Positions 2,950-60,500 of a stretch of DNA of 64,000 bases are shown here, piece by piece (positions within the stretch are counted from its first letter, which is position 1; every line of letters begins with the position of its first letter). Made by a program: the position numbers and the translations under genes. This DNA is from Isurus oxyrinchus. Its lineage: Eukaryota. Location of the stretch: NCBI GenBank assembly GCA_026770705.1, contig JANJGN010000004.1:128092001-128156000 (forward strand), written 5' to 3'. The notes below the pieces were generated by a model that was not told the DNA's origin, ran no database searches, and saw nothing but the letters and a program-made list of their open reading frames with translations.

Positions 2950-4280
2950 AGGGAGTAGAATCTGAGACTCTTGCTCAGCCCATCTGGAATAAAAGGCCCA
3001 GGATTCATCACCCCTGCCACATCACTTTCTTGTCCTATTCCTCCTGAGATGAACTTCAGATCCTGGTGGCGTCCTGGTTGTGCCTTCATAAATGCGATAT
3101 TGGATGCAGCACCAAGGGTATGTATTGGAGGTCACACCGCCTCCCCGCCCCCCCATCTCCTGGGAGGAAGCATTGCTTCAACACACCAATGGTCTACTCC
3201 ATGACATCCCTGATGTCATGGCTCTCATTATATGGCTATTGTCCTTGTCTGGTCAAATAGCGGAGAGGGGTCTGGAGGGTGCATCCCATGTCTCGTTAGA
3301 GCCAGCCTCTAGTTTTTCTTGGAGACACAAAGACATTGAGAACAACAAACTGCCTTAGAATGAAGGCATGGTAGCTGCTTCCATGATAGGGGGTCTTTAC
3401 CAACATGCACTGTGCATGGTCATCCAACTATGCATTAATTGAGTTGTAGCCCTTGTGGTCCCTATACATCTCCCTGGTGACATGGGAATGCTTACAGATC
3501 ATTCAATGTCTCCATGTACCATTAGAAATGGAGGCGATGGCATAGTGGTATTGTCACTGGACTAATAATCCAGACACCCAGGGTAATACTCTGGGAACCT
3601 GGGTTTGAATCCTGCCACAGCATTTGGTGGAATTTGAATTCAATAAAAAGTCTGGAATTAAAAGTCTAATGATGACCATGGAACAATTGTTGTAAAAACC
3701 CATCTGGTTCATGAATGCCCTTTCGGGAAGGAAATCTGCTGTCCTTATCTGCTCTGGCCTACATGTGACTCTAGACCCACAGCAATGTGGTTGGTTCTTA
3801 AATGCCCTCTGAAGAAGGGCAATTAGGGATGGGTAATAAATGCTGGCCTAGCCAGTGATGCCACATCCCATGAATGAAAAAAAAATCCTGGCAAAGCCAT
3901 GTGCCCTCGTACCCTGCTCATAGAACATGGTGTAATTGCCTCTTTTTGCATATATGGTTGCTGTCACCTCCTGGATGTAGCGTAGGATGGTGTACTGGGA
4001 GATGTAAATTATGTTGTAACCTCCTACCTATCAGTCGAGTGGCAATTTTAATGCCACTATGATCTTTAAAGCCATTGATAGTGCTGTCTGTGAGGCTCCA
4101 GGCCATATTGGAGAAGATCGTTACAGACTGTTCCACTTCCTTCAACACAAGCTGGCACAGTCTGCCACCAGCTCTTTGTTGAATCTGAGCCCCCTTCAGG
4201 CATTGACTTGGTGAGTTGGAGGTGTGAGAAAACCTGTAGTGAGGAAGGCCTTCTGTGAAGCCCAATGCGCTCTTAATGTG
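2950..4280 (-). pseudogene. Degenerate Harbinger (HARBI1-like DDE) transposase, interrupted by a SINE
   Basis: Minus-strand motifs LRFNKELVAD, YISQYTILRYIQEVT, HKGYNSINA, GSSYHAFILRQ, PYNESH...TIGVLKQCF, with multiple stops and frameshifts. Convergent with the Myb-like ORF, as in the element at 18324-21889. Confidence 0.8.
3529..3885 (+). mobile_element. tRNA-derived SINE whose head and tail match the LINE at 37501-41051
   Basis: A box TGGCATAGTGG (~3538), B box GGTTTGAATCC (~3602), tail agggcaattagggatgggtaataaatgctggcc...catgaatgaaaaaaaa. Confidence 0.9.
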
Positions 4281-5289: not shown

Positions 5290-5830
5290 ACGGCACTAGG
5301 GCAATGAATGTTGATAGGTTGTTACTTATCATGTTCTTATGTCCAATTACTGTGAAGACTGCAGCAGGTACAACATAAAACTTCTGTTCTGTTGAAGGGT
5401 CATGAGGACTCGAAATGTCAACTCTTTTCTTCTCCGCCGATGCTGCCAGACCTGCTGAGTTTTTCCAGGTAATTCTGTTTTTGTTTTGGATTTCCAGCAT
5501 CTGCAGTTTTTTGTTTTTACAGCATAAAACTTGTTACATGTAAAACCTTGGTGTGTGCACATTGCAGACATGACACATACATCCTTAGACACTCCCAGGC
5601 ACCAGGGATGTTTACCAGCCCAGCTGTCTGTTTGGCAATAATGGATAGCTTTTAAAAATATGGCTGGTGACTTCCATGGACGGAGCCTGGGCATAGGTAT
5701 AACGATAGCCATACATCGATCAGGGCTATCACTGATCAGACCAGTTGTCTGCTCAAGATCCGTTTCAGATGGCTGGACAGATCAGGTGGCACTCTCCAAT
5801 ATACACCTGCAGAAGTGTCACTTCTTTTTC
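5290..5830 (+). pseudogene. Harbinger transposase remnant (C-terminal half)
   Basis: YILRHSQ..., RYNDSHTSIRAITDQT, LLKIRFRWLDRSGGTLQYTPAEV, matching the HARBI1-family motif LK.RFR.LDRSGG.LQY. Confidence 0.75.
5383..5518 (+). repeat. Short Penelope-type terminal repeat with a hammerhead-ribozyme-like motif
   Basis: gttctgttgaagggtcatgaggactcgaaatgtcaactc...gatgctgccagacctgctgagt. A near-identical inverted copy lies at 10463-10567. Confidence 0.65.
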
Positions 5831-7690: not shown

Positions 7691-7696
7691 CACCTT

Positions 7697-8345
7697 TATT
7701 CTTTCATGGAATGTGGGCATCACTGGCAAGGTCAACATTTATTGTCCTCCCCTATTTGTCTTTGAAATGAGTGACTTGCTAGGCCATTTCAGAGGGCATT
7801 TAAGAGTCAATCACAATTCGGTGGGTCTGGAGTCACATGTAGGAAAAACCAGGTGAGGATGACAGATACCCTGCCCTAAAAGGACTTTAGTAAACCAGAT
7901 GGGTTTTTACAACAATGGATTATAGCTTCATGGTCACCATTACTGGGACTAGCTTTCAATTCCAAATTTATTAATTGATTTCAAATTCCACCAGTTGCCA
8001 TGGTGGGATTTGAACCTATGTCCCCATATCATTAGCACTGGCCTCTGGATTACTAGTCCAATTTTATTGCTGTGGCATAATGGCTTAATAGTTATGGTAA
8101 TGAGATAGTGGTATGTATTGTGATGTAACAATGACATCAGCAGTCATGTGCTAGAGACTCCATAGAGAAGATAAAATAGCCTGTACACAAGAGAGATGTA
8201 GTCACCTAGTATCTTATTGTGTTTATGGTGTAAATAAACTAGTTTTGAAGCAACCTACCTGAGTCAGGCTTGAGTCAACTTTCCTAGTATAGATTAGGCC
8301 ATGAGACAAACCACTAACAATTACCACTATGCCACTGTCTCCCCC
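7697..8345 (-). mobile_element. tRNA-derived SINE (same family as 3529), with a solo LTR inserted in its head
   Basis: Tail at 7697-7770, body to ~8060, A-box end attaccactatgccactgtctcccc at 8320-8345. Confidence 0.85.
8067..8319 (+). mobile_element. Small solo LTR
   Basis: tg...ccactaaca ends, gtcatgtg and aataaa motifs. Splits the SINE between its A box and the rest. Confidence 0.55.
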
Positions 8346-10462: not shown

Positions 10463-10567
10463 AGAACAAAAACAGAATTACCTGGAAAAACTCAGCAGGT
10501 CTGGCAGCATCGGAGGAGAAGAAAAGAGTTGACATTTCGAGTCCTCATGACCCTTCGACAGAACTTG
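10463..10567 (-). repeat. Short Penelope-type terminal repeat with a hammerhead-like motif
   Basis: Reverse complement of 5386-5490 with very few substitutions. Confidence 0.65.
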
Positions 10568-13609: not shown

Positions 13610-16340
13610 GGAAATTGAAGGGGTTAAACTGTTTATACTTCAATTCAAAGAGTATTGCAAATAAGGTAGATGAGTTAAGGGCACAGGTAGAAATATGGCA
13701 GCAGGATGTCTTTGCTACAATGTAGACCTGACTAAAGGAGGGACAAAACTGGCAGCTTAATATCCCTGGTTATAGAGTCTTCAGACACAATAGAGTAGGA
13801 GATAAAAAAAGGAGGGGGTGGGGTGGGGGGTACCACTAATGGTTAAAGAATCAATTCCAGTTGTGAGAAGGGATGATAAACTAAATGGGTCAACAAACGA
13901 GGCTTTATGGATTGAGCTTAGAAATAAAAAAGGGGCAGAGACACTACGAGGAGTATGCTACAGATCCCAAATAGTGAAAGGGAGATAGAAGAACAAATAT
14001 GTAGGCAAATTTCTGCTTGTAAGAACAAGAGGGCAATAATAGTAGGAGACTTCAACTATCATAATATCAACTGGGATTTAAACAACATTAGGGGCACTGA
14101 AGGATAAAATTCATGCAGTGTGTCCAGGAAAATCTTTTCAATTCAACCAATTAGTGACAAACCCAACGAGAGGAGATGCAATTCTTGACCTAGACTTGGG
14201 GAACGAAGAAGGGCAAATAGGTGAAGTGACAGTTGGCAACCACATCGGGGACAGTGATCACAATTCAGTTAGATTTAGCATTACCATGGAAAAGGACAGA
14301 GATAAGGCAGGACTAAAAGTCTTGAATTGGGGGAAGGCAAATTTTGCAGAAATGAGAAGGGATTTGGCTGAGGTGGACTGGACAGCACTGCTGGAGGATA
14401 AAACAGTGGAAAGCCAGAGGGAAGCACGAAAAAGTGAGATCCTAATTGTACAAAGTAGATATGCCCCTTACAAAAATAAGAGTGGTACTGCCAAATCTAG
14501 ACCCCTGTGGTTGTCTAGAGGAATACAGGGGAAGATCAAACAGAAAAACAAAGCATACGATAGGCACAAAGAACTAAGCACTGCAGATAGCCTAGACAAA
14601 CATAGGAAGTGCAGGGATGAAGTAAAAAACGAAATAAGGAAATCAAAGAGAGGGCATGAAAAAAAGTGGCAAGTAAAATTAAAGTTTAACCCAAAGATGT
14701 TTTACCAATACATTAATGCTAAAAGGTTAGTTAAGGAAAAAGTGGGACCTATCAGAGATGAAGATGGAAACTTGTGTGTAGATGCAGAGGCTGTGGGAAG
14801 GTTTTTCAATGAATATTTTGCCTCCGTGTTTACAAAGGAAAGGAAGGATATAGATATAGTAGTCCAGGAGGAACACTGCGAGATATTGGACAGGATAGTC
14901 AAAAAGAGGGAGGAAGTACTCGAAGGGTTGAAATCCTTGAAAGTTGATGTCACTAGGCCCAGATGGATTGTTTCTGAGGCTACTGATGGAAGTCAGATAG
15001 GAGATAGCAGATGCTCTGAGAACGATTTTCTAATCTTTACTAGATAAGGGGAGGTACCGGAGGACTGGAGAAATGCAAACATAGTTCCATTGTTTAAAAA
15101 GGGATCAAAGGAAATACAAAACAATTGTAGGCCAGTTACATCGGTGGTGAGCAAATTAGTAGAATTAATCCTGAGAGATAGGATTAACCGTCATGTGGAA
15201 AGGCATGGACTAGTCAGGGATGGTCAGCATGGATTTGTTAAAGGAAGGTCTTGCCTCACAAATTTGATTGAATTCTTTGAGGAAGTGACAAGAAGGGTTG
15301 ATGAAGGTAGTGCAGTGGATGTTGTGTACGTGGATTTTAGCAAGGCATTTGACAAGGTCCCACATGGCAGATTGGTCAGGAAAGTAAAAGCCCATGGGAT
15401 TCAGGGTAATGTGGCAAACTGGATAAAAGGCTGGCTTTGTAACAGGAAACAAAGGGTAATGGTTGATGGATGCCCTTGCGAATGGAAAGTTGTCTCACGT
15501 AATGTTCCACAGGGAATCCTTGCTGTTTGTTTTATATATTAATGATTTGGATGTGAATGTGCGGGGCACGATTGGGAAATTTGCAGATGACACAAAGATT
15601 GGCCGAGTGTAGAGGATAGCCATAATCTCCAAAATGATATAGATGGGTTGGTGAGTGGACGGTAAAGTGGCAGATGGATTTTAACGTAGAGAAGTGTGAG
15701 GTCATACATTTAGGGAGGTCAAACAGTTACAGGGATTACACAATAAATGGGAATATACTAAGAGGGATAGATGAAGTGAGAGATCTTGGCGTACAAGTAC
15801 ACAGGTCCCTGAAGGCAGCAGTTCAAGTAGACAAGATTGTAAAGAAGGCATATGGAATGCTCTCCTTCATTGGCAGAGGTATAGAATATAAGTAAGGATA
15901 TAATGTTGGAATTATATAAAACACTGGTGAGGCCAGAACTGGAGTATTGTCTGCAGTTCTGGTCATCACATTACAGGAAGAACATAATAGCTCTGGAGAG
16001 GAGGTTTACAAGAATGTTGCCAGGGTTAGAAAAGTGTAGCTAAGAGGAGAGATTGGATAGGTTGGGATTATTTTCCTTAGAACAAAGAAGGCTGAGAGGT
16101 AACTTGACTGAAGTGTACAAAATTATGAGGGAGTAGATAGAGTGGACAAGATAAAATTGTTTTCCTTGGTGGAGAATTCTAGAACCAGGGGACATAGATT
16201 CAAGATAAGTGGCAGAAGGTGTAGGGAAGACATGAGGAAGAACGCAGAGAGTAGTGGGTGTCTGGAAAATGCTACCCAAGTTGGTGGTAGAGGCAGAAAC
16301 TCTAAACTATTTTAAGAAGTACCTGGATCTGCACCTAAAG
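13610..16340 (+). pseudogene. CR1 ORF2: APE endonuclease plus reverse transcriptase, disrupted
   Basis: VGDFN, PTRGDAILDL, SDHNSV, QHGFVKGRSCLTNL, VYVDFSKAFDKVPH, KFADDTK. Many frameshifts. Confidence 0.95.
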
Positions 16341-24720: not shown

Positions 24721-25991
24721 AAATATCTCATAGAATCATAGAATGGTTAGAGCACAGTCCGAGGCCATTTGACCAGAGATGCCCATGCCAGTTTTCCGCA
24801 ATTGTACCTCACCTAGTCCCACTCATCTGCTTTTTCCCCATAGACCCTGCAAATATTGTCTCCCTGGATAATTATCCAATATAGGAAGTTTGGTTGGAAT
24901 GTTTTCATACCAATAACCAAGGAGACACAAAATATGAGAATGGTTTAAGCACTAAAAATGTGGTATACCAACATTTGCTTATTCTAAGCATCATATATAC
25001 CACAGTTAGTTAGGAAAGTTAAGCTCCATAATGGCAACATGTCATGTTAACATTCTACAGTTTACTTAGAAAGATTTAAAATTTTGTTGGCTCATTAGAG
25101 TCATTTTTAACATTCGTGGTAACATTTCTGTAGCACATCTAAAAATAATACATGAGCAGAATTTTCCGTTTCCTCAGCCTGTCAGAAAAAGAGGCACATT
25201 CCACCTGACTAAAAGGCATGCTGTCTTTATTCAGTGTTGTATATGCACCAAAACATTGTTAAAGAATGAAAAATGATGGGAAATATGTATGGCTGAAGAG
25301 CTGAGAAATATACATGACAGAAGACTGCAAATGGGCAAAAATTTAAGCTAGAAGAAAAATCTCCAGAGCATGTCAAAAGGAATATTCTTACTAGGATATA
25401 TTCTGAGATATAGATATATACAGAGCAATATAGATTGCTATGATGCGATGATAGTGAGCAGCTGATTATATTTGCTGCTATAAATTCTCTATTTTAATTT
25501 TACTGAAGAATGAAAACATCAGCTTCATAAAAGTTCACAATTTTGTCATTGCAAAATTTTTCTGAAGCACACAGAAAAATAATAGTATTTTCAGAGGAGC
25601 CTGGTTATTATCAGAAACACCACAGTGTTGGTGACAAAATCTTAAAAAACCATCAGTGTTACATGATCAACATTAATTAAAACAATTAATAGTTCTCCTT
25701 GGCATTACCATCATGGAAACCCCGACCATCAATATCCTGGGGTTATCATTGACAGTAAATTGAATTGGATCAGCCATAAAATCCACTTGCCTGGATGAAA
25801 TTAACTCCAACAACAGTCAAGAAGCTCGGCACCATTTTGGACAAAGCAGTACGCTTGAGTGGCACCCCATCCACCACCATAAACCATTCACTCTCTCCAC
25901 CACTGGTACACAGTGGCAGCAGTGTGTACCATCTACAAAATCCATTGCAGCGACTCACCAAGGCTCCTTCACCAGTACCTTCCAAATCCAC

Positions 25992-28950
25992 AACATAGGA
26001 ACATAAGCAATAGGAGCGGGAGTGGGCCATTTGGCCCCTCAACCCTGCCCCATCATTCAAAAAGATCATGGCTGACCTGCCCCAGGCCTCAACTCCTCTT
26101 TCGTGCCAGCTCCTCATAGCCCTCAACTCCCCAATATTTCAAAAATCTATCTACCTCCTCTTTAAATATTTTCAGTGATCTAGTCTCCACAATTCTCTGG
26201 GATAGAAAATTCTAGACATTAATAACCCTGAGAGAAGAAATTCCATCACATCTCATAAATGAGTATCCGTATATTCTGCGACTATGTCCCCTAGTTTGAG
26301 ACTCCCCTGTAGTTGAAACATCTTCTCAACATCTACCCTGTCAAGCCCCCTCAGAATCTTGTACGTTTCAATAAAGTCACCCCTCATTCTTCTAAGCTAA
26401 TGAATAAAGGCCTAACTTGTTTAGCCATTCTTGATAAGTCAGTCCTTTCATCCTAGGAATCAGCCTACTGAATCTCTTTTGAACTGCCTCCAATGCCAGT
26501 ATATCCTTTTTTAAATATGGGGATCAAAACTATACACAGTACTCCAGGTGCAGCCTCACCAATACCCTGTACAGTTGTTAAACTCCAATCCGCGAGCAAT
26601 ACAGGCCAAAATTCCATTTGCCTTCTTAATTACTTGCTGCACCTGCATGCTAATTTTGTGTTTTATGCACAAGAACAGCCAGATCCCTCAATCCTGCACT
26701 TTTTTGGAGTCTCTCTATTTAAACAATAGTCTGCCTTTTGATTTTTCCTACATGACCTCACACTTTCCTACATTAAACTCCATCTGCCAGGTATTTGCCC
26801 ACTCACTCAACCTATCTATATCGCCTTGCAGGTTCCTTATGTACTCATCATCATATGCCCTCCCACCTACTTTAATTTTGTCAGAAAATTTGGATACATT
26901 AGACTCTGCCCCCTCCTCCAAGTCATTAATATAGATAGTGAATAATTAAGGTCCTAGGACTGATCCCTGTGGCACTCCACTAGTTTTGTCTTTCCAACCT
27001 GAAAAAGACCCATTAATCCTGACTCTGTCTTCTATATGTTAGCCAATCTTCAATCCATGCTAGTATATTACCCCCAATACTGTGAGCTTTCATCTTGTGC
27101 AATAACCTTTTATGTAGCACCTTATTGAATGCTTTCTGGAAATCCAAATACACTACATCTACAAGTTCCCCTTTATCAACTCTGCTTGTTATATCCTCAA
27201 AGAACTCTAGATTGGCCGGGCTGTTAACAGTGAGTTTGAGTGTCTTGGGCTACAGGAAGATATAGATGGGCAGATAAGTGGCAGATGGAATTTAACCCCT
27301 GAAAAGTGTGAGGTAATACACTTTGGAATGAGTAATTTGACAAGGAAGTATTTAATGAACAGCATGACACTAGGAAGTCCTGAGGAACAAAGGGACCTTG
27401 GCATGTGTGTCCATAGATCTCTGAAGGCAGAGGGGCATGTTAGTAGGGTGGTGAAAAAGGCATATGGACACTTGCCTTTATCAATCGAGGCATAGATTAC
27501 AAAAGTAGGAAGGTCATGTTGGAGTTGTATAGAACCTTGGTGAGACCACAACTGGAGTACCGTGTGCAGTTCTGGTTGCCACATTATAGGAAGGATGTGA
27601 TTGCACTGGAGGGAGTGCAGAGGAGATTCACCAGGATGTTGCCTGGGATGAAATGTTTAAGTTATGAAGAGAGGTTGAATAGACTTGGATTGTTTTCTTT
27701 GGAACAGAGAAGACTGTGGGGGCGACCTGATCGAGGTGTACAAGATTATGAAGGGCATGGACAGGGTGGATAGGGAATCGCTTCCCCTTAGTTGAAGGGT
27801 CAGTCACGAGGTGACACAAGTTCAAGGTGAGGAGCAGGAGGTTTAGGGGCGATGTGAGGAAAAACCTTTTTACCCAGAAGGTGGTGACGGTCTGGAATGT
27901 GCTGCCTGGGAGGATAGTGGAGGCGGGTTGCCTCACATCCTTTAAAAAGTACCTGGATGAGCACTTGGCACGTCATAACATTCAAGGCTGTTCACTGTTT
28001 GATTGCAGTAAGCTGTTCTAAATGTCCTATTTCTTCCTTAATAACGGACTCTGGCATTTCTCCAACAGATGTTAGGCTGACTGGCCTATAGATTGCAGCT
28101 TTTTGCATTCCTCCTTTCTTGAACGGGGCGTCACATTAGTGGTTTTCCAATCTGCTGGGACCCTCCCAGAATCCAATAAGTTCTGGAATATTTCGATCAA
28201 TGCCTCCACTATCTCTGCAGCCACTTCCTTTAAAACCCTTGGATACAGGCCATCAGGTTCTGGCAACTTGTCTGCTTTTAGTCCCATCAGTTTGTCAAAT
28301 ACTTTGTCCCTCATGACAGAGACTGTTACAAGGTCTTTCCTCCCATTATCTCCTTGCTTAACTGATATCTTTGGAGTGTTTATAGTGTCCTCCACCATGA
28401 GGACCGATGCTAAATACCCATTTAAATTATCTGCCTTTTCCCTGTTCCTCATTATCAATTCTCCAGTCGCATCCTCCAAGGGTTCCATGCTCACTTTAGC
28501 TACTTTTTTTTTATATACCCCTAGAGCCTCTTGCTATTGTTTTATATTTCTTGTGACTTTACTTTTGTAATCAATTTTCTCTTTCTTTATTAGCTTTTTA
28601 GTAATCCGCTGCTGGTTCCTAAAAAATTCCCAATCCTCTGCCCTGCCGCTAGTTTTCGCCGCTTTGTATGCTTTAGTTTTTGATTGGATACTCTCCTTGA
28701 CTACCTTTGTTTACCATAGGTGGTTTCATCCTTCTCATCGAGTCCTTCTTTTTGACTGGGATAAATTTTTGCTAAGCATTATGAAATATCAGCTTAAATG
28801 TCTGCCACTGCTCATCCACTGACATTCCCCTTAGTCTATTTTCACAGCCCCCTTTAGACAACTTTTTCTTCATACTTCTAATTGCCCTTATTTACTTCGA
28901 GGACACTGCTTTGAGACCAGTGTTGCTCACCCTCAAAACTGAATTTGTAA
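25992..28950 (-). mobile_element. CR1 LINE (5'-truncated, RT region)
   Basis: Tail ...cttatgttcctatg at 25995 and LMGLKADKLPEPDGLYPRVLKEVAAEIVEAL...VPADWK. Confidence 0.9.
27210..27990 (+). mobile_element. CR1 3' fragment nested in the minus-strand CR1
   Basis: MLELYRTLVRPQLEYRVQFWLPHYRKD...LSYEERL.RLGLFSLEQRRL. Confidence 0.9.
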
Positions 28951-29514
28951 CCTTTACTACCTAGAAGGACAAGGACAGCAGATGCATGAGAATACCACCA
29001 CCTGCAAATTCCCCTCCAAGCCATTCACCATCTTAACTTGGAAAAATATGGCCGCTCCTTCATTGTTGCTGGGACAAAATCCTTGAACTCTCTCCCTAAC
29101 AGCACTGTGAGTGTACCTATACCACATAGACTGCAGGTGGTTCAAGAAGGCAGCTCACCACCATCTTCTGAAGGTAATTAGGGATGGGCAATAAATGCTG
29201 GCCTAGTCAGTGATGTCCGCATCCAGTGAATGAGTAAATAAAAAAAAGTTTATCCACATTGCAAGTATCTGACAAAACAATAACACAATGTCACTCAAAA
29301 TAGAACAATTATTAAGGTAACAGTAAAACTAGTTAAAAATGCCTATATTTTCCATAATTGAAGCCTACAGTAGTAGGAAATCATTATTTTGAAACATGCA
29401 ATTTCTGATAACAGCTATAAAGTGCTTTAGGATGCATTGAGTTCATGAAATGTGCTGAATAAATGCAAGTCTTTTTTCTTTCATTAACAATGAGAGAGCA
29501 GTCTTATTATTTCC

Positions 29515-35474: not shown

Positions 35475-35580
35475 TATGATCCAAAAATGCTGGAAACACT
35501 CAGCAGGTCAGGCAGCATATGTGGACTGATAAACAGAGTTAACTTTTCAATTTGATGATATAGAAGAGTTAACAGCAAAC
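35475..35580 (-). repeat. Penelope-type short terminal repeat remnant
   Basis: aaatgctggaaacactcagcaggtcaggcagcat...cagagttaac, related to 10463-10567. Confidence 0.5.
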
Positions 35581-36900: not shown

Positions 36901-37500
36901 TTGGAACATAAGAATAGATGTAGGCCATTTGGCCCCTCATACCTGTTCATCTATGCAGTGAGATCATAGCTGTTCTGTGACCAAACTCCAGTCTGTTAAC
37001 AGGCGGAAACCTAAAGAATAGGAATAAATGGGACATTCTCAGGATTGCATGCTGTTACTAGTGGGTACCACATGGATCAGTTCTGAGGCCTTAGCTATTC
37101 ACAAGCTATGCAAATGATTTGGATGTCAGGACCAAATGTAATATTTTCAAATTTGCTGATGTCACAAAACTAGGTGGGAATGTAAGTTGTGAGGAGAATA
37201 CAAAGAGACTTGGACAGGCTACGTGAGTGGGCTAGAGCATGGCAGATGGAATATAATGTGAATAAGTGTGAATTTACCCACTTGGGTAGAAAAAACAGAA
37301 AGGCAGAGTATTTCTTAAATGGTGAGATGTTGGGAGTGTTGATGTCAAAAGGGGCCTGGGTGTCCATGTTCCTAAGTCACTAAAAGCTAGCATGCAGGTG
37401 CAATAACCAATTAGGACAGCAAATGGTATGTTGGCATTTATTGCAAGGTGGTCTGAGTACAGGGATAAAGCTGTATAGAGCCTTGGTGAGACGAGAGACT

Positions 37501-38222
37501 GAGGTAGGCGGTGGCATGGTGGTTTTGTCACTGTACTAGTATTCCAGAGACCCAGGGGAATGCTCTGGTGAAATTTGGATTCAATAAATATCTGGAATTA
37601 AAAGTCTGATGATGACTGTGAAACCATTGTCGCTTGTTGTAAAAATCTATCTGGTTCACTAATGTCCTTTAGAGAAGGAAATCTGCCATCATTACCTGGT
37701 CTGGTCCACATGCGACTCCAGATCTACAGCAATCTGGTTGACCCTTAAATGCCCTCAGAAATGGCCTGGTAAGCCACTCAGTTGTATAAAACCACTAAAA
37801 GCCCAGCCTAAAAGGAATGGAATCAGACAGACCACCCGGCACTGACCTAGGCACTGGAAATGACAATGGCAAACTCAGCCCTCTCAATCCTGTAAAGTCC
37901 TCCTTATGAACATCTGGGGGCTGGTGCCAAAACTGGAGAGCTGTTTCACAGATTAGTCAAGCAACAGCCTGACAAAGTCATCCTCATGGAATCATACCTT
38001 ACAGGTAATGTCCCAGATTCCACTATCACCAACCCTGGGTTTGACCTGACCCAGCAGAGGTGGTGGCACAGTGGTATACAGTTAGAAGGGAGTTGGCCTG
38101 GGAGTCCTCAACATTGAGTCTGGATCCCATGAATCTCATGCCATCAGGTTAAACATGGGCAAGGAAACCTCCTACTGATTACCACGTACCAACACCCCCA
38201 CCGCCACCGCTCTCTCCCCCGC

Positions 38223-38253
<31 letters not shown>

Positions 38254-41051
38254 ACCACCTCAGCTGATGAATCAGTACCATTCAATGTTGAACGCCACTT
38301 GGAGGAAGCACTGAGGGCGGCAAGGACACAGAATGCAGTCTAGGTGGGAGACTTCAATGTCCAACATCAAGAGTGGCACCACTAAAGAGCGAGCCCTAAA
38401 TGACATAGCTGCTAGACTCAGTCTGCTGTAGGTGGTGAGGGAACCTACAAGATGGATAAACATACTTGACCTCATCCTCACCAACCTGCCTGCCACAGAT
38501 GCATCTGTCCATGACAGTATCGGTAGGAGTGACCACCACACAGTCGTTGTGGCGACAAAGTCCCACCTTCACATTAAAGATACCCTCCATTGTGTTGTTC
38601 GGCACTAGCACCATGCTAAATGGGATAGATTTCGAACAGGTCTAACAACTCAAGACTGGGCATCCATGAGATGTTGTTGGCCATCAGCAGCAGCAGACTT
38701 GTACTCAACCACAATCTGTAACCTCATGGCCAGGCATATCCCCAACTCTACCATTACCACTAAGCCAGGGAATTAACCCTGGTTCAATGAAGAGTGCAGG
38801 AGGGCATGCCAGGAGCAGCAGCAGATATACCTAAGAATGAGGTGTCAACGCAGTAAAGCTACAATACAGGACTATTTGTGTGCAAGTGATAGACAGAGCT
38901 TTGCAATTCAACAACTAATGGATTAGATCTAAGCTCTGCAGTCCTGCCACATCCAGTCGTGAATGGTGTGGACAGTTAAACAACTCACTGGAAGAGGATG
39001 CTTCACAAATATCCCCATTCTCAATGGAGGAGCCCAGCACATCAGTGCAAAAGATAAGGCTGAAACACTTGTAACAATCTTCAGCAAAAATAATCAATCT
39101 TGGCTTCCTCCAGAAGTCCCGAGCATCACACATGCCAGTCTTCAGCCAATTCAGTTCACTCCAGGTGATACCAAGAAATGGATGAAGGCATTGGTACTAC
39201 AAGAGCTATGGACCCTGACAATATTCCACCAATAGCACTGAAGACTTGTGCTTCAGAACTTGCCGTGCCCCTAGTCAAGTTGTTCCAGTACAGCTACAAC
39301 ATTGGCATCACCCCAGCAATGTGGGAAATTGCCCAGGCATGTCCTGTACGCAAAAAGCAGGACAAATCCAACCTGGCCAATTACTGCCCCTTCAGCCTAC
39401 CCTCGATCATTAGTAAAGTGATGGCAGGGATCATCAAGAGTGCTATCAAGCGGCACATGCTTAGCAATAACCTGCTCACTGACGCTCAGTTTGGGTTCCT
39501 CCAGGGCCACTTAGCCCTTGACCTCACTACAGCCTTGGTTCAAACATGGACAAAAGAGCTGAAACCCAGAGATGAGGTGAGAGTGACTGCCCTTGACATC
39601 AAGGCAGCATTTGACCGAGTGTGGCATCAAGGAGCCCTGCAAAACTGGAATCAATGGGAGTCAGGGGGAAAGTTCTCAGCTGGTTGGAGTAGTACCTAGC
39701 ACAAGGGTAGGTGGTTGTGGTTGTTGGAGGTCAATCACCTCAGTTCCAAGACATCACTGCAGGAGTTCCTCAAGGTAGTGCCCTAGGCCCAACCATCTTC
39801 AGCTGCTCCATCAATGACCTTCCTTCCATCATAAAATCAGAAGTGGGGGTGTTCGCTGATGATTACACACTGTTCAGCACCATTTGCGACTCCTCAGATA
39901 CTGAAGCAGTCCACATCCAAATGCAGCAAGACCTTGACAATATCCAGGCTTGGGCTGACAAATGGCAATCAACATTTGTACCACATAAGTGCCAGGCAAT
40001 GACCATCTCCAACAAGAGAGAATCTAACCATCACCGCTTAACATTCAATGGCTGGAGGAGGTAGTGGCATAATGGTATTGTCACTGGACTGGTATTCCAG
40101 AGACCCAGGGTAATGCTCTGGGGGCCTTGGTTCTAATCCTACATGGCAGAAGGTGGAATTGGAATTCAATAAAAAATCTGGAATTAAGTCTAATGTGTTG
40201 ATTGTCATAAAAACCCATCTGGTTCACTGATGCCCTTTAGGGAAGGAAATCTGCGGTCCTTACCTGGTATGGCCTACATGTGACTCCAGACCCACAGCAA
40301 TGTGGTTGACTCATAAATGCCCTCTGAACAATTTAGGGATGGGCAATAAATGCTGCTATAGTGAATGATGCCCACATCCCATGAATTAATTTTTAAAAAT
40401 TACCATCACTGAATCCCCACTATCAACATCCTGGGGGTGATTGGAACTGGACTAGCGATATAAATACTGTGGCTACAAGAGCAGGTCAGAGGCTAGAAAT
40501 CCTGTAGCTTACCTATAACTCTCTAAAGCCTGTCCACTATCTACAAGGCTCAAGTCAGGAGTGTGATGGAAACTCTCCACTTGCCTGGGTGAGTGCAGCT
40601 CCCACAGCACTCAAGAAGCTCAGCATCATCCAGGACAAAGCAGCCCATTTGATTGGCATTCCATCCACAACCACTCACTATCTCCACCACCGACACACAG
40701 TGGCAGCAGGATGTACCATCTACAAGATGCACTGCTGGAATTCAGCACAGCACCTTCCAAACCCATGATGTAGAAGGACAAGGGCAGCAGATACATGGGA
40801 ACATCACCACCTGAAAGTTCTCCCCCAAGCCATTCACCAACCTGACTTGGAACGACATCACCGTCCTGTCATTGTTGCTGGGCCAAAATCCTGGAACTCC
40901 GTCCCTAACAGCACTGTGGGAGCACATACACCACATGGACAACAGTGGTTCAAGAAGGCAGCTCACCACCACCTTCTCAGGGGTAATTGGAGATGGATAA
41001 TAAATGCTGGCCTAACCAGCAACTCCCATATCCTATGAACGAATAAAAAAA
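37501..41051 (+). mobile_element. Apparently full-length CR1-group LINE with a tRNA-derived 5' head, a single APE-RT ORF (disrupted) and no ORF1
   Basis: Head 37501-37770 matches the SINE at 3529. APE starts KVLLMNIWGLVPKL (~37894), then VGDFNV, ILDLILTN, SDHH. RT motifs QFGF, ALDIKAAFDRVWH, AGVPQGSALGP, FADD. Tail aataaatgctggcc...gaataaaaaaaa. Confidence 0.9.
40054..40398 (+). mobile_element. tRNA-derived SINE inserted into its own partner LINE
   Basis: A box TGGCATAATGG and B-box-like GGTTCTAATCC. The LINE reads through on either side (ttcaatggc / attaccatcactgaatcc). Confidence 0.9.
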
Positions 41052-41589
41052 ACGTCTAGTTTTGGTCTCCTTACCTAAGGAAGGATATACTTATATAGCG
41101 GTAGTGCAACAGATGTTCACCAGCCTAATCCCTGGGTTGGTGGGATTGTCTTATGAGGAGATTGAGGAAACTGGGCCTGTATTCTCTAGAGTTTCAAAAA
41201 ATGAGAGGTGATCTCATTGAAACTTACAAAATTCTTACAGGGCATGATAGGGTGGATGTGGATAGGATGTTTCTGGTGATGGCTGTTGAGTCTGGAACAA
41301 AAGTGCACAGTATCAGAATAAGGGGAAGGCATTTAGGAGAGAGGTGAGAAGGAATTTCTTCACTCAGAGGTTGGTGAATCTTTGGAATTCTCTACCCCAG
41401 AGGGCTGTGGAACCTCAACGATTGAGTATGTTCAAGACAGAAATAGATTTCTGGTTACTAATGACATCAAGGGATATGGGGATTGTGAGGAGAAACTGCA
41501 CTGAGGTAGATGATTAGCCATGATCTGTTTGAATGGTGGAGAAGGCTCAACTGGTCGAATGGCCTACTCCTGTTCCTGTGCTCCTATTA

Positions 41590-45553: not shown

Positions 45554-48500
45554 ATAGGAACATAGTTGTGCTGGCTCCACCATTCAGTCAGATCACGGCT
45601 GACCATCTACCTCAATGCAATTTTCCTGCACTATCCCCATATCCCATGCTATCATTAGTATCCAGGAATCTATTGATTTCTGTCTTGAACACGCTCGATG
45701 GTTGAGCTTCCACAGCCCTCTGAGATAGAGAGTATTAAATATTTACCACCATCTCAGTCCTAAATGCCAGCCCCTTATTCTGATTCTGTGCCCTCTGGCT
45801 CTAGACTCACCAGCCAGGGGAAACATCCTACCTACTTCCAACTTGTCACACCCTGTAAGACTTTTGTAAGTTTAAAGTAAATCACCTCTCATCCTTTGAA
45901 ACACTAGAGAATACAGGCCCAGTTTCCTCAATCTTTCCTCATAATCTTTCGTCAGGGATTAGGCTGGTGAACATCCATTACACTCCCTCTATGCAAGTAT
46001 AACCTTACTTAGATAAGGAGACCAAAACAGTATACAACACTGCAGGTGCAGTCTCACAAAGGCACTATACAATAGCAGCAAGACATCTTCATTCCTAAAC
46101 TCAAATTCCCTTGCGATGAAAGCTAAATAACAATTTTCCTTCCTAGCTAGCTTTTAGTTGTTCATGAACAAGGACACCAGGGTCCCTTTGGACATCAACA
46201 CTTCCAACCTCTCACCATTTAAGATATACTCTGCCTTTCTTTTTTTCTACCAAAGTGTATAACTGCATACTAATTCACACTATATTCCATCTGCCATGTT
46301 CTAGCCCACTCACTTAGCCAGTCCAAATCCCCTTGAAGCCTCCTTGCATCAGCCTCACAACTTGCATTCCCACCTAGCTTTGTTTCATTAGTGAATTTGG
46401 AAATATTACATTTGGTCCCAACATCAAAATAATTTATATAGATTGTGGACAGCTGTGGCCCCAGCTCTGACCCTTATGGTACCCCATTAGTAACAGCCTT
46501 CTTTCCTGAGAATGACCTGTTTATTCTTACTCTGTTTCCTCTCTGTTAACCAATTCTCAATCCATACCACTGCATTACGCCCAATCCTATGTGCTCTAAT
46601 TTTGTTTACTAATCTCCTGTGTGGGACCTTATGAAAATCCAAACACATCACATTCTCTGGTTCTCCTTTATCTGTGCTACAAATAACTTCCTCAAAAAGC
46701 ATCAACAGATTTGACAAACATGATTTCCTTTCCATAAATCCATGTTGACTTTGCCCAAGCATTTCATCATTTTCCAAGTGTCTGGTTACCACATTCTCTA
46801 TTAGTTTCTAACATTTTCCCTACTATTAATGTCAAACTAACAAACCTGTTGTTCTCCATTTTCTCTCTCCCTTCCATCTTAAATAGAGGGGTTTACATTT
46901 GCTACCTTATAGTCTACAGGAAGCTTTCCAGAATCTATTGAATTTTGAAAGATAACCACCAATGCATCCATTATCTCTATAGCCACTTACTTCAAGGCTT
47001 GAATCCAATTAATTTTTTGAGTACTAAATAAAAATTAAAATACCAATTTCTTTCAGTTCCCCATTTTCACATTCACTTGGCTCCCTAGTATTTCTGAGAA
47101 ATTTTCTGTATCTTCCTCCATGAAGACATACAAAATAATTGTTTAGTTTCTCTGCCATTTCCATATTCTCCACTATACATTCTCCTGTCTCTAGCTGCAA
47201 TGAACCCACCTTTGTTGCTGCTAACCTTTCCCTTTTCACATACCTAAAGATGCTTTTACAGTCTACCTTTATGTTTCTTTGCATCAGCGTGCATTCGTAT
47301 TCTCTTTTTGGTTCTCCTTTGCTAAATTTCTCCCAATCCTCGGGCTTACTACTTTCTCTGGCAACCTTATACGCCACTTCCTTTGATCTAATGCAATCTT
47401 TAGCTTCTTTTATTAGCCATGATTGATTCACTTTTCCTTTTGAGTTTTTGTGTCTCAGGGGAATGCATATTTGTTATAGAGTATCTAATACTTTTAAAAA
47501 TAGTAGCCATTGTCTGTCTGCTGTCAAACTTTTTATTATATTTTCCTATAGCCAACTTGCCCCTCATACCTTCATAGTTTCCTTTGTTCAGATTCAGAAT
47601 GAACTATATCACTTCCTAACTTAATGTAAAATTCTATCGTATTATGATCACTATTTCCAAAAGGCTCCTTTACAGCAAAGTTACTAATTATCCCTTTCTC
47701 ATTACATAATACTAAATCTAAAGCAGCCCAATCCCTAGCTGGTTCTTCAATATACTGCTGCAGAAACACATCCTGTAAAAACACCAGGAATTAATCCTCC
47801 ACAGCATTAGTGCAAATTCGATTTACCCAATCTATATGAAATCTAAGTCACATTATTACTGTATTATCCCCATATTACATGCAGCTCTAATTTCCTGATT
47901 TATCCTGTGCCTAACATCACCACTACAATTTGGTGGCCTATAAACAACTCCCACCAATGTTTGCTGCCCCTGCCATTTCTTAACTCCACCCAAACAGATT
48001 CTACATCTTGATCCTTCAATCTAAGATCCTCTCTCACTAATGTACTGACCTCGTCCCTTATTAACAGTGTTACCCCACATCCTTTTTTTTGCCTATCTTT
48101 TCTAAATGATAAATAGCCTTGAATATTCAATTCCCAGTCTCAATCATCCTGTAACCACATCTTCATAATGACAATTAAATCATATCCATTTATCTCTATT
48201 TGTGCCTTCAAATCATCTATCTTGTTGCAAATGCTGCATGCATTGACATAGAGCGGCCTTAACTTTGTCTTTTTAGTATTATTCCACATTATGATCCTAT
48301 TTGATGCTTATCTTTGTTTCATCTGTCTTCTAATTTCATTTACTTCCTGATAGCATTCTACTTCCTGATAGCAGTTTTAATCTCTGCCAGTCTGAGCTCT
48401 GTCTTAGGTTCCCATCCTCCTGCCAATCTAATTTAAACTCTCCCCAATAGCACTAGCAGTCCCAACTCCACGAAGATGCAATCTGTACATCGCACCTTTC

Positions 48501-51844: not shown

Positions 51845-54800
51845 TACCATATTTATTGTATTTAAGCCAAATTTTTGAGACCAATTTTTAGGCCAAAAGT
51901 CATGGAGTCGACTTTTACATGGCTGTTTTTGAGGGGTTGCTTTGGGCCAAAGTTAAATACAGAAAAGACTGTTGCAATGGAATGAAGTAAAACCCAACAA
52001 CACTAAAGAATTCATAATATCTAAAATTTAATCATTTTATAAAATTACGATCTATAACATTTCACATTGAAATCCTTTGTAATCACTTTGATCCTCAAAT
52101 AATTTGTTCCAATCGCCTTGGTTGCATAGCATCATTGTACAGATCCTCCTCATCTTCATCATCACTATCATTGAAAGTAACTTTGGCATCGGCATTCCAC
52201 AAATATTTGTCCTTGATACCGTTGAGGGCATTCAATGTTTCACATTTTAGAAATTATTTTTTGACAACATTGGGAATGAGTTATTCCCAGCGTATACGAC
52301 CCTTTGGCACAATGTTGCTAGTGTAGGTACTTGCCTCCCTTAGTGAATGTTTATTCGCCTTGCAACATCCAATTTTTCCACATTTTTCAGATACTGTCCT
52401 TTTTGGTTTATTTATCCTAACATACCAACATCCAAAACACTTGTAAACCTGCCGGAAATTACTGCCAGTGAGTGTAGGTCAATTTTACATCATGGACTAC
52501 ATGGTCGACAAGGTGGGATTTGAACATGCCCCAGATGATCAAACTTTTTTATTTGATCCATTGAATGTGGTGCATAAGCACGTGCAGAGTGAGGGCAGGG
52601 AAGCGGCCATGCATTGGGGAAACCTTATATAAAGTGACGATTCCTCTGTAGCTAAGGCAGTTCAGACATAGCCACACTGATATGCGTGGAGTTGGGCCTC
52701 TAACTTATTTGCCCACTCAAGCAACACAGAGGCATGAAAGTGCCACCAAGTGCTCCAGAGCTTTTCACCCCTCGGGCACAGACTGCAAACTAATGAGCAT
52801 TTTGGTGGACTGGCAAAGTTGGATGGCTGGGCAAGTTGCACAATCTCCTTGCTGGAGCTGGCCATGGTGGAGGTGCTCACAGCCCCTTGTAATGTCATCA
52901 TTCAGGTTTGAACCAGTTCCCCCATGGTTCAAGCCAACAGTGCAGCCTTTCAACGCGCATTAAGAGAATGCCAGCTGAGACCACAACATGCAGTCCCATG
53001 GGCACAATTTGAGGAGTGCAGCAGACATCCCTTCTTGATGTTCCCAAGTTTGCCTTTGCTGCTCCAGCAACTGTGACTTGACCGAGTCCAGAGGCTCGGA
53101 TTCAGCAGATTTCTCCACTCCAGCAACCTCCGAGTGCTGGACACCTGGGAAGTCTCTGCCGCCATCTGCTGGGATCAGAAAATACGATGTACTTGCCAGA
53201 TTGTGATCCTGAGGCTACTCTAAAGGTCGGTCCCACCGAGGTGTGTGTCTCTGCACTGGTGGAGGGTGTGGGTGAGCACTGTGATAGGTCTTCAATGAAG
53301 GTTCCTTCAGATTTCCCTTCAGAGGTTTCTTTGGGTCTTGATTGGAGGCCCTGGATTGTGGATTCCATCAGCTGTTTCCCAGATGTGCCTGTAAAAGCAA
53401 GGAGAGGTAATTAGTGCATGGCAGGGGACTGAGGAACAGGACACATCACTCACAACATGGTTGTGTGATGGATGTTGCATTGCAGGACCCTCACTTGGTA
53501 GAGCACCACCGACCTCACCATCAGCACAGGAACGGTCCAGATCCTCGCCGGCCAGCTGGATGGTTCTGTTTTCAAAGTCCATGAGGACCTTGATTTCAGG
53601 CATTCCTCCACCAGTCTGTGACCACCCCCTCTAGTTGTATGCCAGTTTTTCCTGCATGACTATAGATGGGGAGGATGCCTGCCAGGCCAGGTGATCAGCG
53701 TGCCTGGCACGTGTGGGTGTTGAGTAATCCCACGGATGGGACAAGGACAATGAAGGTGTGTTTGAGAGAATGAATGATGATGTCTCTTGAACTGGCAGTG
53801 AGTGAGGTTCCTGTGGATGTGTGATGGGTTTGTGAGTGTGAGTTGAGAGTGATGAGGTGGGTACCCTGGTGGAATGGAGGAGATCATTCATCCTTTTTTG
53901 GCACTGGGCAGCTGTGCTCTTTTGTAGGGCATTGGTGCTGACCACCGTTGCCACCGCTTGCCATGCTGGATACGTGGTGGTGCTGCCCATCCTGCAGCTG
54001 GAGCACGGATGAGCACATCACATCATCTCGGACCTCCACTGTATCCAAACATTGCTCAAGGGACAATATCAGTAAACTTGAGTCTGCAGCCTTCTAGCCT
54101 TTTAGAGCCATGTCCTCTTTGCAGCAGCCATGGGCTGGAAGCACTGAAATGTGTGCACGCGGCTGCACTTTAAATATGGCGCCCAGCATGATGAAGCAGC
54201 CAGCTGATGGCGTGGTGGGCAAATGCAAGCCCTTCCAGCATTGAAATAGCGTGTTTCGCAGGAATGCATAAGTGATGAGCTGGGATTGTGACAATACAGC
54301 ATGGAAAGCCGCCATGTGGCCATCTGGGAAAATGCCCCTTATCCCGCGCACTACAGTGCAAATCTGGGACAACTCCCCCATTTATCATTGAATTCAGATG
54401 GCAGATGCTGTGAAATGTTTTTTTCTGACAGGATACCAAATTGTGCCTTTTTATGAATCTTGTACACCACCTGGCATTGGCTTTGAACTCTGGAGTACCA
54501 TCTTTCTTCGTTTCTCTGAATGTGTGAGTTGGATGGCTCCGTAAGTGGTAATATGACAATTTTGCCAATGCTCTTTAAACACATTCCCACTATTCTCTCC
54601 TGGCAAGGCCACTTGCTCCGTCTTCTCCTGTTGACGCATTTGTCCTTCAGCATCTTTTCCAGTTTATTCGACATATTTGTCCAGTCTCTAATTATTTTCT
54701 TGGAAACGTTAAACTCTCTTGCTGCTGCACAATTATTTGTCTTCTTGGTGAATATTACAATTTGCAGTTTTAATTAAGTTGCATACTTATTATTCTTTCT

Positions 54801-57522: not shown

Positions 57523-60500
57523 TGTTGGATCTAGTGCCCTTGATTTGTTGGGGCTAAAGGATCCAGGTTGCATGCTTTGTTCGGGGTGACCGAGTCGGTA
57601 CAGAGACAGGGAACATCAGGAGGTCCTTGTTAGAATAAACACCTGCTGTTTATTTACAAACTAAATTCTACACCTATACTTGTGTGCTCACACATAAAAC
57701 TCGCTGTTTTCACTAACTCAAGACTCTCTCACATCGAGGTAGCCCGCACTACTCTGCTATTGGAGATTAAGATCATGTGACCTTATATTACAATACTTGT
57801 CTTAAAGATGTATTACAAATCAAGTTACTACATCCCTCCCCCTTTACTGAAAAATGCATTTTACACTTTTTCAATATATCAAGTTATTTACACAGTTCAA
57901 TTATTTATAAAGTCAGTCTCGCTGGGAATTTCCTTATGCGTTAGAACATCTCAGGTCTACAGCTTCTGAAGTTTGCCTTGGAGTCTCCCTTACTGAAGTC
58001 ATCTGGGCATCAGGTTCCTGTTTCTTCAACTCTTTCAGGTACAGTCAGCCCTTCAAATACATTTGTACTTTGGTGAGTTTTTCAACAGGAACTGTTGATT
58101 CATTCTCAAACACTTGTGGAATCACCTCTGGATATTTGGTTTCTCCACTTCATATGTGATCCACATGTCTTCTTATTATTCGACCTTCAACTTTCGCATG
58201 GTAGGAATGAGGTCCTATTAAGCACTTATTTCACTGAAACAGCCACGCTGGTTCTTCTCTAAAATTTTTCACAAGCACCTTCTCTCCTACGTTAAATGTT
58301 CTGTCCTGATTGTGAAAATCCTGTCCCATTTTCTGATTTTCCTGCCTCCTTTCTACCATCACCCTGCCAAGTTTGGCATAATTAGGCTCAGCCTCAATCG
58401 GAGACAGCGCGTCATTAACAGTTCAGCAGGTGTGACACTTGTTGTCGAATGAGGGGTGATACAATAATGGAAGGGAAAATGTGCTAACTTAGTTGCTAGT
58501 GAATCTCCAGACAATTTCTTCATACCAGATTTGAACGTCTGAACTGCTCTTTTGGAAGTCCATTTGAAGAAGGGTGGCATGGAGATGTTTCCATTGAGCC
58601 TTGTAAATTGGTTAAATTCAGCACTTGTGAATACTGTTCCATTATTTGACGCCAGCACTTCAGGTAATCCATTTATAGCGAAGCTTTGTCGTAACTTGCT
58701 ACTGTCGCTGAAGATATGGGTGACCTTTCTTCGTATATACCCATCCATTTTGAATGAATGTATATGATAAGAAGAAACATTTGGCGGAATTTTCCCAGAA
58801 TTGTACTAAGTCCAGTAGCAGGTGGGTAATATGGAGTCCTACCCGCCAACAAAAGTGACAGGTTTTCATGAAGTATCATCCTGAGCCCACCTCATTAGTT
58901 ATTCACTCCCGCAAAACACACCACTTCCATGGCGGGCGGGCCCTCATTTGCCCGCTTGCCATCACCCCGCTGTCAGCCGCCATCTTTAAAAGGCAGCCAC
59001 CAGCTCACCACCGCTGCCAGGGAGACATGGCCAACAAAGGCAAAAAGACTGCAGCTCCCCACTTCAATGACGGATCCATTGAGTGCTGTGGAGGCTCACC
59101 GGGATGTGCTCTATCCCCGCTTTGGCCACAGGATGGGTAGCAAAGTCACCAAACCATCTTGGGAGGCAGTGGGCAGCGGTGGTCAGTACAAATGCCCTGT
59201 AGAGGAGGACAGCCACCCAGTTCCGCAAAAGGATGAATGATCTCTTCCATTCCGCTAGGGTAAGTCACTCTTTTTATCACTGCCAACTCACACACTCACA
59301 AACCCATCACACACCTACAGGGCCCTCATTCACTGCAATGCAAGTGACATCACCACTCACTCTCTCACACTCACCGTCATTGTCCTCATCCCATCCATGG
59401 GACATTCACAACCCCACAGGCCAGACATACTTATCATCTGGCCCAGCAGGCGTCCTGATACACTCTCCCCATATCTATCCATGCAGGACAAACTGGCTCA
59501 CAACAGGAAGGAGAGGTCGCAGACAGGTGGAGGGATGCTAGAGATCAAAGTTCTGACAGAGTTCGAAAACAGAGCCATCCAGCTGGCCGGTGATGACCGG
59601 GACCTGTCCTGTGCTGACGGTGATGTCGGCGCTGCTCTACCAAGTGAGGGTCCAACAGTGTACCATCCATCAGACAACCATGCCATGAGTGACATGTCCT
59701 CTTTCACAGGCCACTGCCACGCACTAATTATCTCTCCTTGCTTTCGCAGGCACATCTGCCAAACAGCCGACAGAGTCCATGACCCAGAGCCTCCAATCAA
59801 GCCCCGAAGAAACCTCTGAAGAGGAATCTGGGGTCACCCTCCCTGAAGTCCCATCACACCCTTCACCAGCGCAGAGACACACACCCTGGTGGGACCTAGC
59901 TTTAGAATAGCCTCAGGATCACAATCTGATGAGCACATTGCACTTCCTGATCCACAGCAGGCAGAGGCAGGGACTTCCCAAGTCCTCCGCACTTGGAGGG
60001 CTGCTGGAGGCCAGAACATTGCTGGGTTCAAGTCAGGTGACGAACCTCTGGACTTGGTCATGTCTCAGTTGCTGGAGCTGCAAAGGCAAGCTCGGGAACA
60101 TCAGGAAGGCATGTCTGCTGCACTCCTCAGATTCCAAGGCACAATGGAGGAGTCCCTCTGTCTTCAGGCTTAAGTGATAGTGCTGGCATTGCAACGCATC
60201 AAGGTCAACAATGGTAGGATGTCGTCCACCATGGAAACCTTGGTCTAGGACATCACACCTGCACTGCTGCGCGGGCTTAACTCCATTGCTGATGCCATAG
60301 TTGGTCTCCAACATTGTGTACATGAGAGGGGTGTTGGGCAGCTCGATCTCACTCCAGCTACCCCTTCCATTCATGGAGTCAGCCAGGGGTCTTCGGGCAC
60401 CCAAGGGGAGAAAGATCAGCAGGTACACAATCCAGGGCCAACCGCCCAAGTGACTCTGGGAGTGACCAGCCCATCCGAATCCCCTCTTCCTGTGACCTCT

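Follow-up and report, generated by a model that had tools for sequence, protein, structure and literature searches.

How SINEs are born, and from where the bodies in their middle are taken, is an open question. It is raised in concrete form by the window studied here (the whole 64-kb stretch of DNA that was analysed), which contains three copies of a short element: 3529-3885 (+), 40054-40399 (+) and 7695-8060 (-), the last referred to below as copy 7697. According to the original prediction, each copy is the head of a LINE joined to the last ~70 bp of the same LINE, the breakpoints differ from copy to copy, and such SINEs have been born repeatedly by internal deletion. The answer turns on whether the head belongs to the LINE and on how the junctions relate to one another. 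The parts of the SINE copies are:

3529-3813 (+), head and body of copy 1 (copy 3529), homologous to the LINE 5' end
3538-3549, 3557-3573, about 3577-3595 and 3602-3612 (+), A-box-like word, anticodon-like arm, extra hairpin and B-box-like word of copy 1
3814-3885 (+), tail of copy 1, with the last LINE codons, 3' UTR, stem-loop and A run
40054-40328 (+), head and body of copy 2 (copy 40054), within the LINE just past the RT core
40329-40399 (+), tail of copy 2, beginning 5-6 nt further in than that of copy 1
7788-8060 (-), head and body of copy 3 (copy 7697), 5'-truncated and of a divergent type
7765-7787 (-), 23-nt extension of copy 3, common to LINE 37761-37783 (long junction)
7695-7764 (-), tail of copy 3

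All three copies are composed only of the LINE head (~260-285 nt) and the last ~70 nt of the LINE, and all three align to the LINE 5' end and to the LINE tails, which bears out the predicted composition. A self-BLAST of the window groups 3530-3878, 40057-40389 and 8060-7695 as one short element, the first part of which resembles 37501-37783 and the last part 29173-29243 and 40981-41050. The heads of copies 3529, 40054 and 7697 are 82.1% (206/251), 82.2% (199/242) and 72.5% (177/244) identical to LINE 37501-37760, respectively. Copies 3529 and 40054 are identical to each other at 227/273 positions; copy 7697, which has 8-nt and 1-nt indels relative to the other three heads and has lost the A box through 5' truncation, shows 72.5-76% identity to the other heads. 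At 346-366 nt, and dispersed as three copies in the window, the elements fall within the SINEBase definition by length (<700 bp, non-coding) and by the 3' tail that they have in common with a partner LINE. The tail of copy 3529 matches the LINE 3' ends at 29170-29247 and 40978-41052 (BLAST E values of 3e-14 and 2e-10), and the SINE tail matches this LINE, not the other CR1-type pieces of the window. The tail of copy 1 (3814-3885) yields a stem-loop with a z score of -2.9, and the stem begins 7-13 nt past the SINE junction. This stem-loop is common to SINEs and LINE; its fold is not proven, since none of 15 pairs carries a compensatory change. Contigs that match the SINE or LINE head were found by the thousand in all four runs.

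The LINE (37501-41052) consists of a head, a 110-nt linker, a decayed single ORF that encodes an AP-endonuclease and a reverse transcriptase (RT), and a tail with an A run. It and the neighbouring elements are laid out as follows:

37501-37760 (+), LINE 5' head (tRNA-like region and body), the B box lost in the window copy
37761-37783 (+), LINE segment kept in long-junction SINEs and absent from short-junction SINEs
37784-37893 (+), linker confined to the LINE, sharing its frame with the head ATG position and the endonuclease start; two TGA stops in the window copy
37894-40053 (+), decayed single ORF with AP-endonuclease start (KVLLMNIWGL), linker and RT
40400-40977 (+), remainder of the ORF past the inserted SINE
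40978-41052 (+), LINE tail common to the SINEs, A run at 41045-41052
28962-29247 (+), 5'-truncated second copy of the tRNA-headed LINE, with the second tail (TCTGAA at 29166)
25698-25990 (+), internal fragment of the tRNA-headed LINE, showing the empty site of the 40054 SINE insertion
36995-37492 (+), older CR1-type element into which the LINE was inserted, left half
41054-41580 (+), right half of the same older CR1-type element
14082-16334 (+), 26186-27177 (-), 27276-27990 (+), 27990-28960 (-) and 45564-46672 (-), pieces of a second CR1-type family, used as controls

The family has a length of 3.2 kb and one endonuclease/RT ORF. Its RT is recognized by Pfam RVT_1 (E values of 5e-10 and 4e-11) and by a tblastn match with the 934-residue protein P0004, and is 28-43% identical to the RT of the second CR1-type family. 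Only 110 nt separate the end of the head from the endonuclease start, which leaves no room for an ORF1 upstream of the RT ORF. AP-endonuclease and RT in one ORF, a 3' stem-loop and insertion without target duplication are features of the CR1/Jockey group, to which the LINE, judged by features and motifs, probably belongs; the N-terminal AP-endonuclease excludes the R2 clade. The B box is missing from the window copy through a 33-nt deletion after 37568, a gap that is filled in other contigs (LINE or SINE). The endonuclease region contains a run of 30 C at 38224-38253, within a C-rich stretch of ~75 nt.

The SINE copy 40054 was inserted within the LINE, as the empty site in fragment 25698-25990 demonstrates, and the LINE in turn interrupts the older CR1-type element. 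In two other copies of the CR1-type family the two flanks (to 37492; from 41054-41059) follow one another. Since the element as a whole interrupts a sequence with consecutive flanks, the LINE head and body arrived as one block. This insertion cost ~16-22 nt of target and produced no duplication, and ~10 extra bases, which partly repeat the target, stand ahead of the LINE head; no convincing target-site duplication was found at any of the four insertions examined. The three-level nesting at 36995-41580 (SINE in tRNA-headed LINE in older CR1-type element) also gives the order in which the elements were active. Other repeats of the window include a 1-kb repeat in opposite orientation (53006-54019 and 59103-60133, 76.5%) and a 100-nt inverted pair (5386-5485 and 10465-10564) that, at 98% identity, is much younger than the other repeats and has a weaker relative at 35490-35548.

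The tRNA-like head is well supported as a trait of the LINE family, by the CR1 nesting, by bridging contigs and by two whale-shark gene models (P0012 and P0013). The contigs of four runs (24 listed) were aligned to 37400-38180 (781 nt) at 80% likeness, where depth is not equivalent to copy number; a coral-metagenome run with a small share (X20) was left out. Among the 32 contig pieces listed, one (X17 record 17, 37708-37936) runs from the head into the endonuclease and covers more than 31 letters of either; its 34 other letters and 10 gaps relative to the window identify it as another LINE copy. Two further bridging pieces, with a head overlap of only 10-12 letters, were left out of this count. 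None of the 32 listed pieces spans from the tRNA-like part to the endonuclease; the link between these two is read from the window copy. At position 37788, which lies five bases beyond the last base shared with the SINEs, one common LINE-type letter is carried by 108, 97, 34 and 14 contigs of the four runs. These contigs are anchored on the head side, because contig depth collapses ~100-fold at 37801-37809. Deletion joints 37667>38153 (two runs) and 37748>38048 (one run) likewise place head and endonuclease on one contig. Each of the 16 LINE-specific letters listed for the head is in the minority among the contigs and is thus private decay of the window copy.

At the protein level, a phmmer query with the head-to-endonuclease frame, its two stops written as X, gave five matches, three of them relevant (P0011, P0012 and P0013); the other two, P0014 and the tandem repeat protein P0010, were judged to be unrelated. 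P0012 reads through the head and a LINE-type SCI into the endonuclease without the linker, perhaps as a result of splicing, and P0013 contains the end of the head, the linker and the endonuclease. A word search with the same frame gave no match.

The reading frame of the window copy is unbroken by shifts from 37732 to the endonuclease. Positions 37732-37734 are ATC in the LINE copy, ATG in all three SINEs and ATG in 67%, 88%, 91% and 98% of the contig depth of the four runs. At 37906, the sole ATG further on, most of the contig depth has another triplet, and the start codon of the LINE therefore likely lies at 37732-37734, inside the part that is shared with the SINE. In copy 3529 the short junction joins the likely first and last codons of the LINE ORF in frame (3784-3826, +), to give a mini-ORF of 13 residues. 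The same holds for the whale-shark sequence P0020 and not for the long junction; this may be chance (1 in 3).

A tRNA origin of the head is likely, if not proven, from its sequence. A-box-like, anticodon-arm and B-box-like words are recognizable by eye, with an extra hairpin between them. ARAGORN made no tRNA call at its default threshold; at a threshold of 95% it called 3534-3622 in copy 3529 and 0/40 random controls, and a call on copy 40054, in a different register, was not counted. Rfam tRNA scores are 14.4 bits (E 5.9) for copy 3529 and 20.2 bits (E 0.11) for copy 40054, both below the gathering score of 29, and the head of the LINE copy has no Rfam tRNA match. Removal of 16-24 nt from the head gave no better tRNA calls (at the 95% threshold, 2/72 variants of 3529 and 0/72 of 40054). 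We assign no tRNA species to the head because the anticodon differs between copies (AAT, GGT and AGT). In Rfam the SINE body at 40202-40352 (-) also has a weak, full-length match (19.7 bits) with a conserved part of human LINC00901. With an E value of 0.17 this match of the copy 40054 minus strand is probably due to chance; if real, it would point to an old exapted relative.

The three junctions read as originally quoted, and copy 7697 does keep additional LINE 5' sequence, namely the 23 nt that correspond to LINE 37761-37783 (7787-7765 in the SINE). The claim that each copy has its own breakpoints is overstated. Copies 3529 and 40054 have a common last head base (3813 and 40328, equivalent to LINE 37760) and differ on the tail side only, by ~5-6 nt, which makes them one class or nearly so; the tails of copies 3529 and 7697 begin at the same base (LINE 40978). 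In copy 7697 the head sequence shared with the LINE directly abuts the shared tail (7765/7764), and the same is true of P0011 and P0018: no base is left over between LINE head and tail in these long-junction records. Like a bipartite non-autonomous LINE, the SINE contains nothing but LINE 5' and 3' ends.

One ORF search gave six matches, two of which were members of the query. Eight junctions were classified in all, three read from DNA and five from translated ORFs compared with three-frame translations of the window (P0019 is outside the count); junctions read from protein in gene models may be spliced, as in P0012 with its missing linker. The long junction is found in three of the eight: copy 7697, P0011 (KPLSSRAIRDGQ) and the first unit of P0018 (SEVAYQATQFKGN). 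The other five are short: copies 3529 and 40054, the whale-shark sequences P0020 (CPLGN, end) and P0021 (CPLGFGVG), and the second unit of P0018 (CPQATRVGK). The short group is 23-31 nt shorter than the long class, with tail starts that agree within 6 nt. All five short junctions lie inside the long one on both sides and none has more head or more tail. One junction class with secondary deletions, the pattern named beforehand as speaking against repeated birth, matches these eight junctions, which form a long class and a nested short group. P0018 is a protein from a JGI/ENA contig of 3208 nt, in which two related SINE units in tandem, one long- and one short-junction, follow a CA-type microsatellite. 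Its units are more divergent than the shark copies, and the family may reach beyond elasmobranchs.

The predicted tctgaa microhomology is present in part. Of the two LINE tails, that at 29166 has an exact TCTGAA and that at 40975 has TCTCAG, its longest common word with the head end of 3529 being 4 nt. Neither copy 3529 nor copy 40054 shows the clean product of a microhomology deletion, in which GG would come straight after one TCTGAA. A single 3-nt slip separates each from this one-word product, and equally a single event separates each from an ancestor with the head end followed by CAAGGG; the window cannot tell these two ancestors apart.

The main part of the prediction stands: the head is part of the LINE family, nothing is left over between head and tail, and the SINE is best explained as an internal-deletion derivative of the tRNA-headed LINE. 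It would be the LINE minus ~2.9 kb, with the head joined directly to the terminal stem-loop. By analogy with other stringent LINE/SINE pairs, the RT is expected to recognize this stem-loop, and with promoter-like head and tail both kept, one deletion or one RT template jump from tail to head would give a mobile SINE. We prefer a deletion or RT jump over capture because no base is left between LINE head and tail, and the position of the only candidate in-frame ATG upstream of the endonuclease, in the shared segment, would also favour it. Since all short forms lie inside the long form on both sides, we suggest one founder, and a single birth with later trimming is our preferred reading, probable if only just. 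In this scheme one founding event would create the long junction (head to LINE 37783, tail from LINE 40978), trims of 23-31 nt across it would produce the short group, and members of that group would then diverge by slips of 3-6 nt. The junction types are most likely marks of subfamilies, not events of individual copies, and the repeated birth originally proposed is not shown by the eight junctions and is slightly disfavoured.

Several observations weigh against a single founder. The LINE head and the two short-junction heads are star-like (24, 16 and 14 unique changes in 240 columns; 2, 2 and 1 informative pair sites of 226), which would be natural if the short class had been born separately from the 37501 LINE lineage; the head of copy 7697 is set apart by two indels and by unique changes at 34 of 226 columns. 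A trim that ends at the old junction is in itself a coincidence, and the short junction appears to sit on an imperfect match of head and tail (6 nt exact, in one of two tails). Two or more independent births are thus a real possibility, although one that falls short of probable. An older LINE lineage with a 7697-type head would have given the long-junction SINE and the 37501 lineage the short-junction SINE, the latter by a jump or deletion at the TCT(G/C)AA match of head end and tail; the tail starts would coincide because the stem-loop, which starts so soon past the junction, sets a minimum tail. The LINE head does group with the short-junction heads (82% versus 72.5% identity, with the 8-nt and 1-nt indel states in common), and the minority status of its 16 listed letters means that the source heads of LINE and short SINEs were nearly the same. 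From a short-junction ancestor with a single TCTGAA, each of 3529, 40054 and the whale-shark form can be reached by one 3-nt slip, and Drosophila R2 SIDEs arose four times according to the accessible text of PMC3414825. P0012, with its LINE-type ORF, has two residues in common with 7697 against the other heads (GI and H in GICHPH), but the H is also present in the short-junction P0021, which weakens this hint of a second lineage. Against several births, separate 2.9-kb deletions should sometimes keep more head or tail, whereas all short forms nest; the 7697 indels have no known polarity and could be changes on the 7697 branch after one birth; and a 7697-type head on a LINE was not met with at the DNA level.

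The reverse order of events, in which an ordinary tRNA SINE with the tail of this LINE came first and passed its head and body, in a single template switch, to a 5'-truncated LINE, is in our view very unlikely. R2 template jumps have placed tRNA or snRNA on LINE 5' ends (accessible text of PMC3414825), published SINE bodies are often older than their tails (accessible text of PMC4824008), and the head was acquired at some time, as P0004, an invertebrate-type relative (~40% identical over the RT), starts directly at the endonuclease. However, capture would require a piece that breaks off precisely at the border of body and tail, with zero leftover in three long-junction records, and the LINE ORF appears to start inside the shared body. 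Nor do Meta or Deu motifs occur beyond chance, with one short motif each a weak test: a 19-nt Meta motif gave no match with up to three mismatches and the MetaSINE consensus no likeness by eye, and a 16-nt Deu/Nin motif of the SacSINE1 type gave one match, outside the elements, against 2.0 expected by chance (motifs from the accessible parts of PMC4824008 and PMC7245038, the Meta consensus from the supplement of the latter). A local accident, the landing of a 3'-truncated SINE beside a 5'-truncated LINE, is scarcely credible. The window has a single full head-to-tail LINE copy and SINEs do enter this LINE (40054); against this stand the CR1 nesting in one block, the bridging contig, the hundreds of contigs with the LINE-type letter past the head, the deletion joints (37667>38153 in two runs, 37748>38048 in one) and two whale-shark loci.

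Relatives of the LINE are found in other sharks and rays. Its RT fragments match proteins of Mobula, Scyliorhinus, Heptranchias, Pristiophorus and Rhincodon (8 among 216 candidates), which marks the window as elasmobranch. Gene models of sharks and rays that carry pieces of the LINE RT (P0001, P0003, P0007 and P0008), such as a cystathionine beta-synthase-like isoform and a glycosyltransferase-like model, reflect exonisation or annotation error. Exact-pattern scans for further SINE or LINE copies found none in viral contigs, JGI metagenomes and GTDB genomes; the tail-pattern match L001, of 18 nt only, is due to chance. Searches for loci of LINE relatives gave 44 pattern matches in metagenomes (with P0004) and 24 in genomes (with P0002), none of which was confirmed. 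An ESM Atlas search with P0013 returned only unnamed clusters and one endonuclease cluster. The full-text literature searched held no account of a tRNA-headed LINE with a SINE that shares both its ends; Repbase, Dfam, the SINEBase supplements and subscription papers, which lay outside the search, may hold the family.

The closest parallels are the bipartite non-autonomous LINEs and the SINEs built on them, which the accessible text of Kojima 2018 (PMC5786205) describes for Bov-A/Bov-tA, RIME, NARTc, RTE-N and Vingi derivatives. Like the SINE described here, they keep only the 5' and 3' ends of an autonomous LINE after internal deletion and are moved in trans. In that model the tRNA head is added later, by a second template switch, whereas here it is already present on the autonomous LINE; deletion alone therefore gives a classic-looking SINE. 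ORF-less bipartite forms are reported, in the same accessible text, only from RTE, Ingi, Vingi and R2, whereas the LINE described here looks like a member of the CR1/Jockey group by its general features. RTE-1_DAn and the elements related to it (PMC5786205, accessible text) are also LINEs with tRNA-like sequence, but belong to another clade and host. In Drosophila R2 SIDEs, internal deletion likewise joins a 5' signal to the 3' UTR, and tRNA and U12 pieces occur at R2 5' ends; the accessible text of Eickbush and Eickbush 2012 (PMC3414825) reports four SIDE origins and proposes later trimming to a minimal unit. The SIDEs differ in their ribozyme and their dependence on rDNA co-transcription, and the tRNA-R2 fusions described there are single insertions without an amplified family. 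In sharks, rays and chimaera, HE1/HER1 and SINEX-1_CM (SINE2-1_CM)/CR1-2_CM pair a tRNA-derived SINE with a CR1-like LINE through a common tail, but tail-only sharing is reported for them (41/46 bases for the elephant-shark pair; accessible texts of PMC3747384 and PMC1845163). Our SINE and LINE may nevertheless be identical with HE1/HER1 or SINE2-1_CM/CR1-2_CM. The arrangement is thus a variant on a known kind, a bipartite LINE derivative whose parent already bears a tRNA-like head.

A promoter-like head on a LINE raises the question of which polymerase transcribes it. Vertebrate Pol III transcripts terminate at a run of four T (T4). On its sense strand the LINE has one T4 run in 3117-3194 nt, compared with 5.7 expected from base shuffles (P=0.02) and 3.5 from dinucleotide shuffles (P=0.097), and this sole run, at 37523 in the head, is private to the window copy. 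In 2834 nt of LINE body, where 2.9 would be expected, no T4 occurs (P=0.043). Summed over every piece of the tRNA-headed LINE the count is two in 3684 nt, against 27 in 7072 nt for the other CR1-type pieces, in line with the 24.8 expected for these; T contents are 0.22 and 0.21-0.29, respectively. The longest T4-free stretch of the window on either strand is 37527-40389 (+); the second longest on the plus strand is 59276-60934. C and G runs are also somewhat rare in the LINE. The near-absence of T4, in one decayed copy, may hint at a trace of Pol III transcription of the LINE, for which Pol II read-through from upstream is the default. We speculate that the full-length LINE could be a Pol III transcript from its own head, with the start codon in a SINE-like body, and could have spawned SINE subfamilies repeatedly by single deletions or RT jumps, a reading that we consider unlikely.

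Under the standing model a SINE of this type is made in two steps, deletion of a LINE and then gain of a tRNA head, and in few LINE clades. Here every SINE base is traceable to one LINE with a tRNA-like head, in a high-copy family common to several sharks, and one-step birth of a SINE becomes testable in existing assemblies. A version with many births would matter more; the data lean to few inherited junction classes. The finding also makes it a concrete, testable question whether Pol III can transcribe a coding retrotransposon of 3.2 kb, against the rule of Pol II LINEs and Pol III SINEs (stated in the accessible texts of PMC3531059 and PMC10886601). If that reading were true, this divide would be erased, and the whole SINE, with its head, body and tail, would have an identified source.
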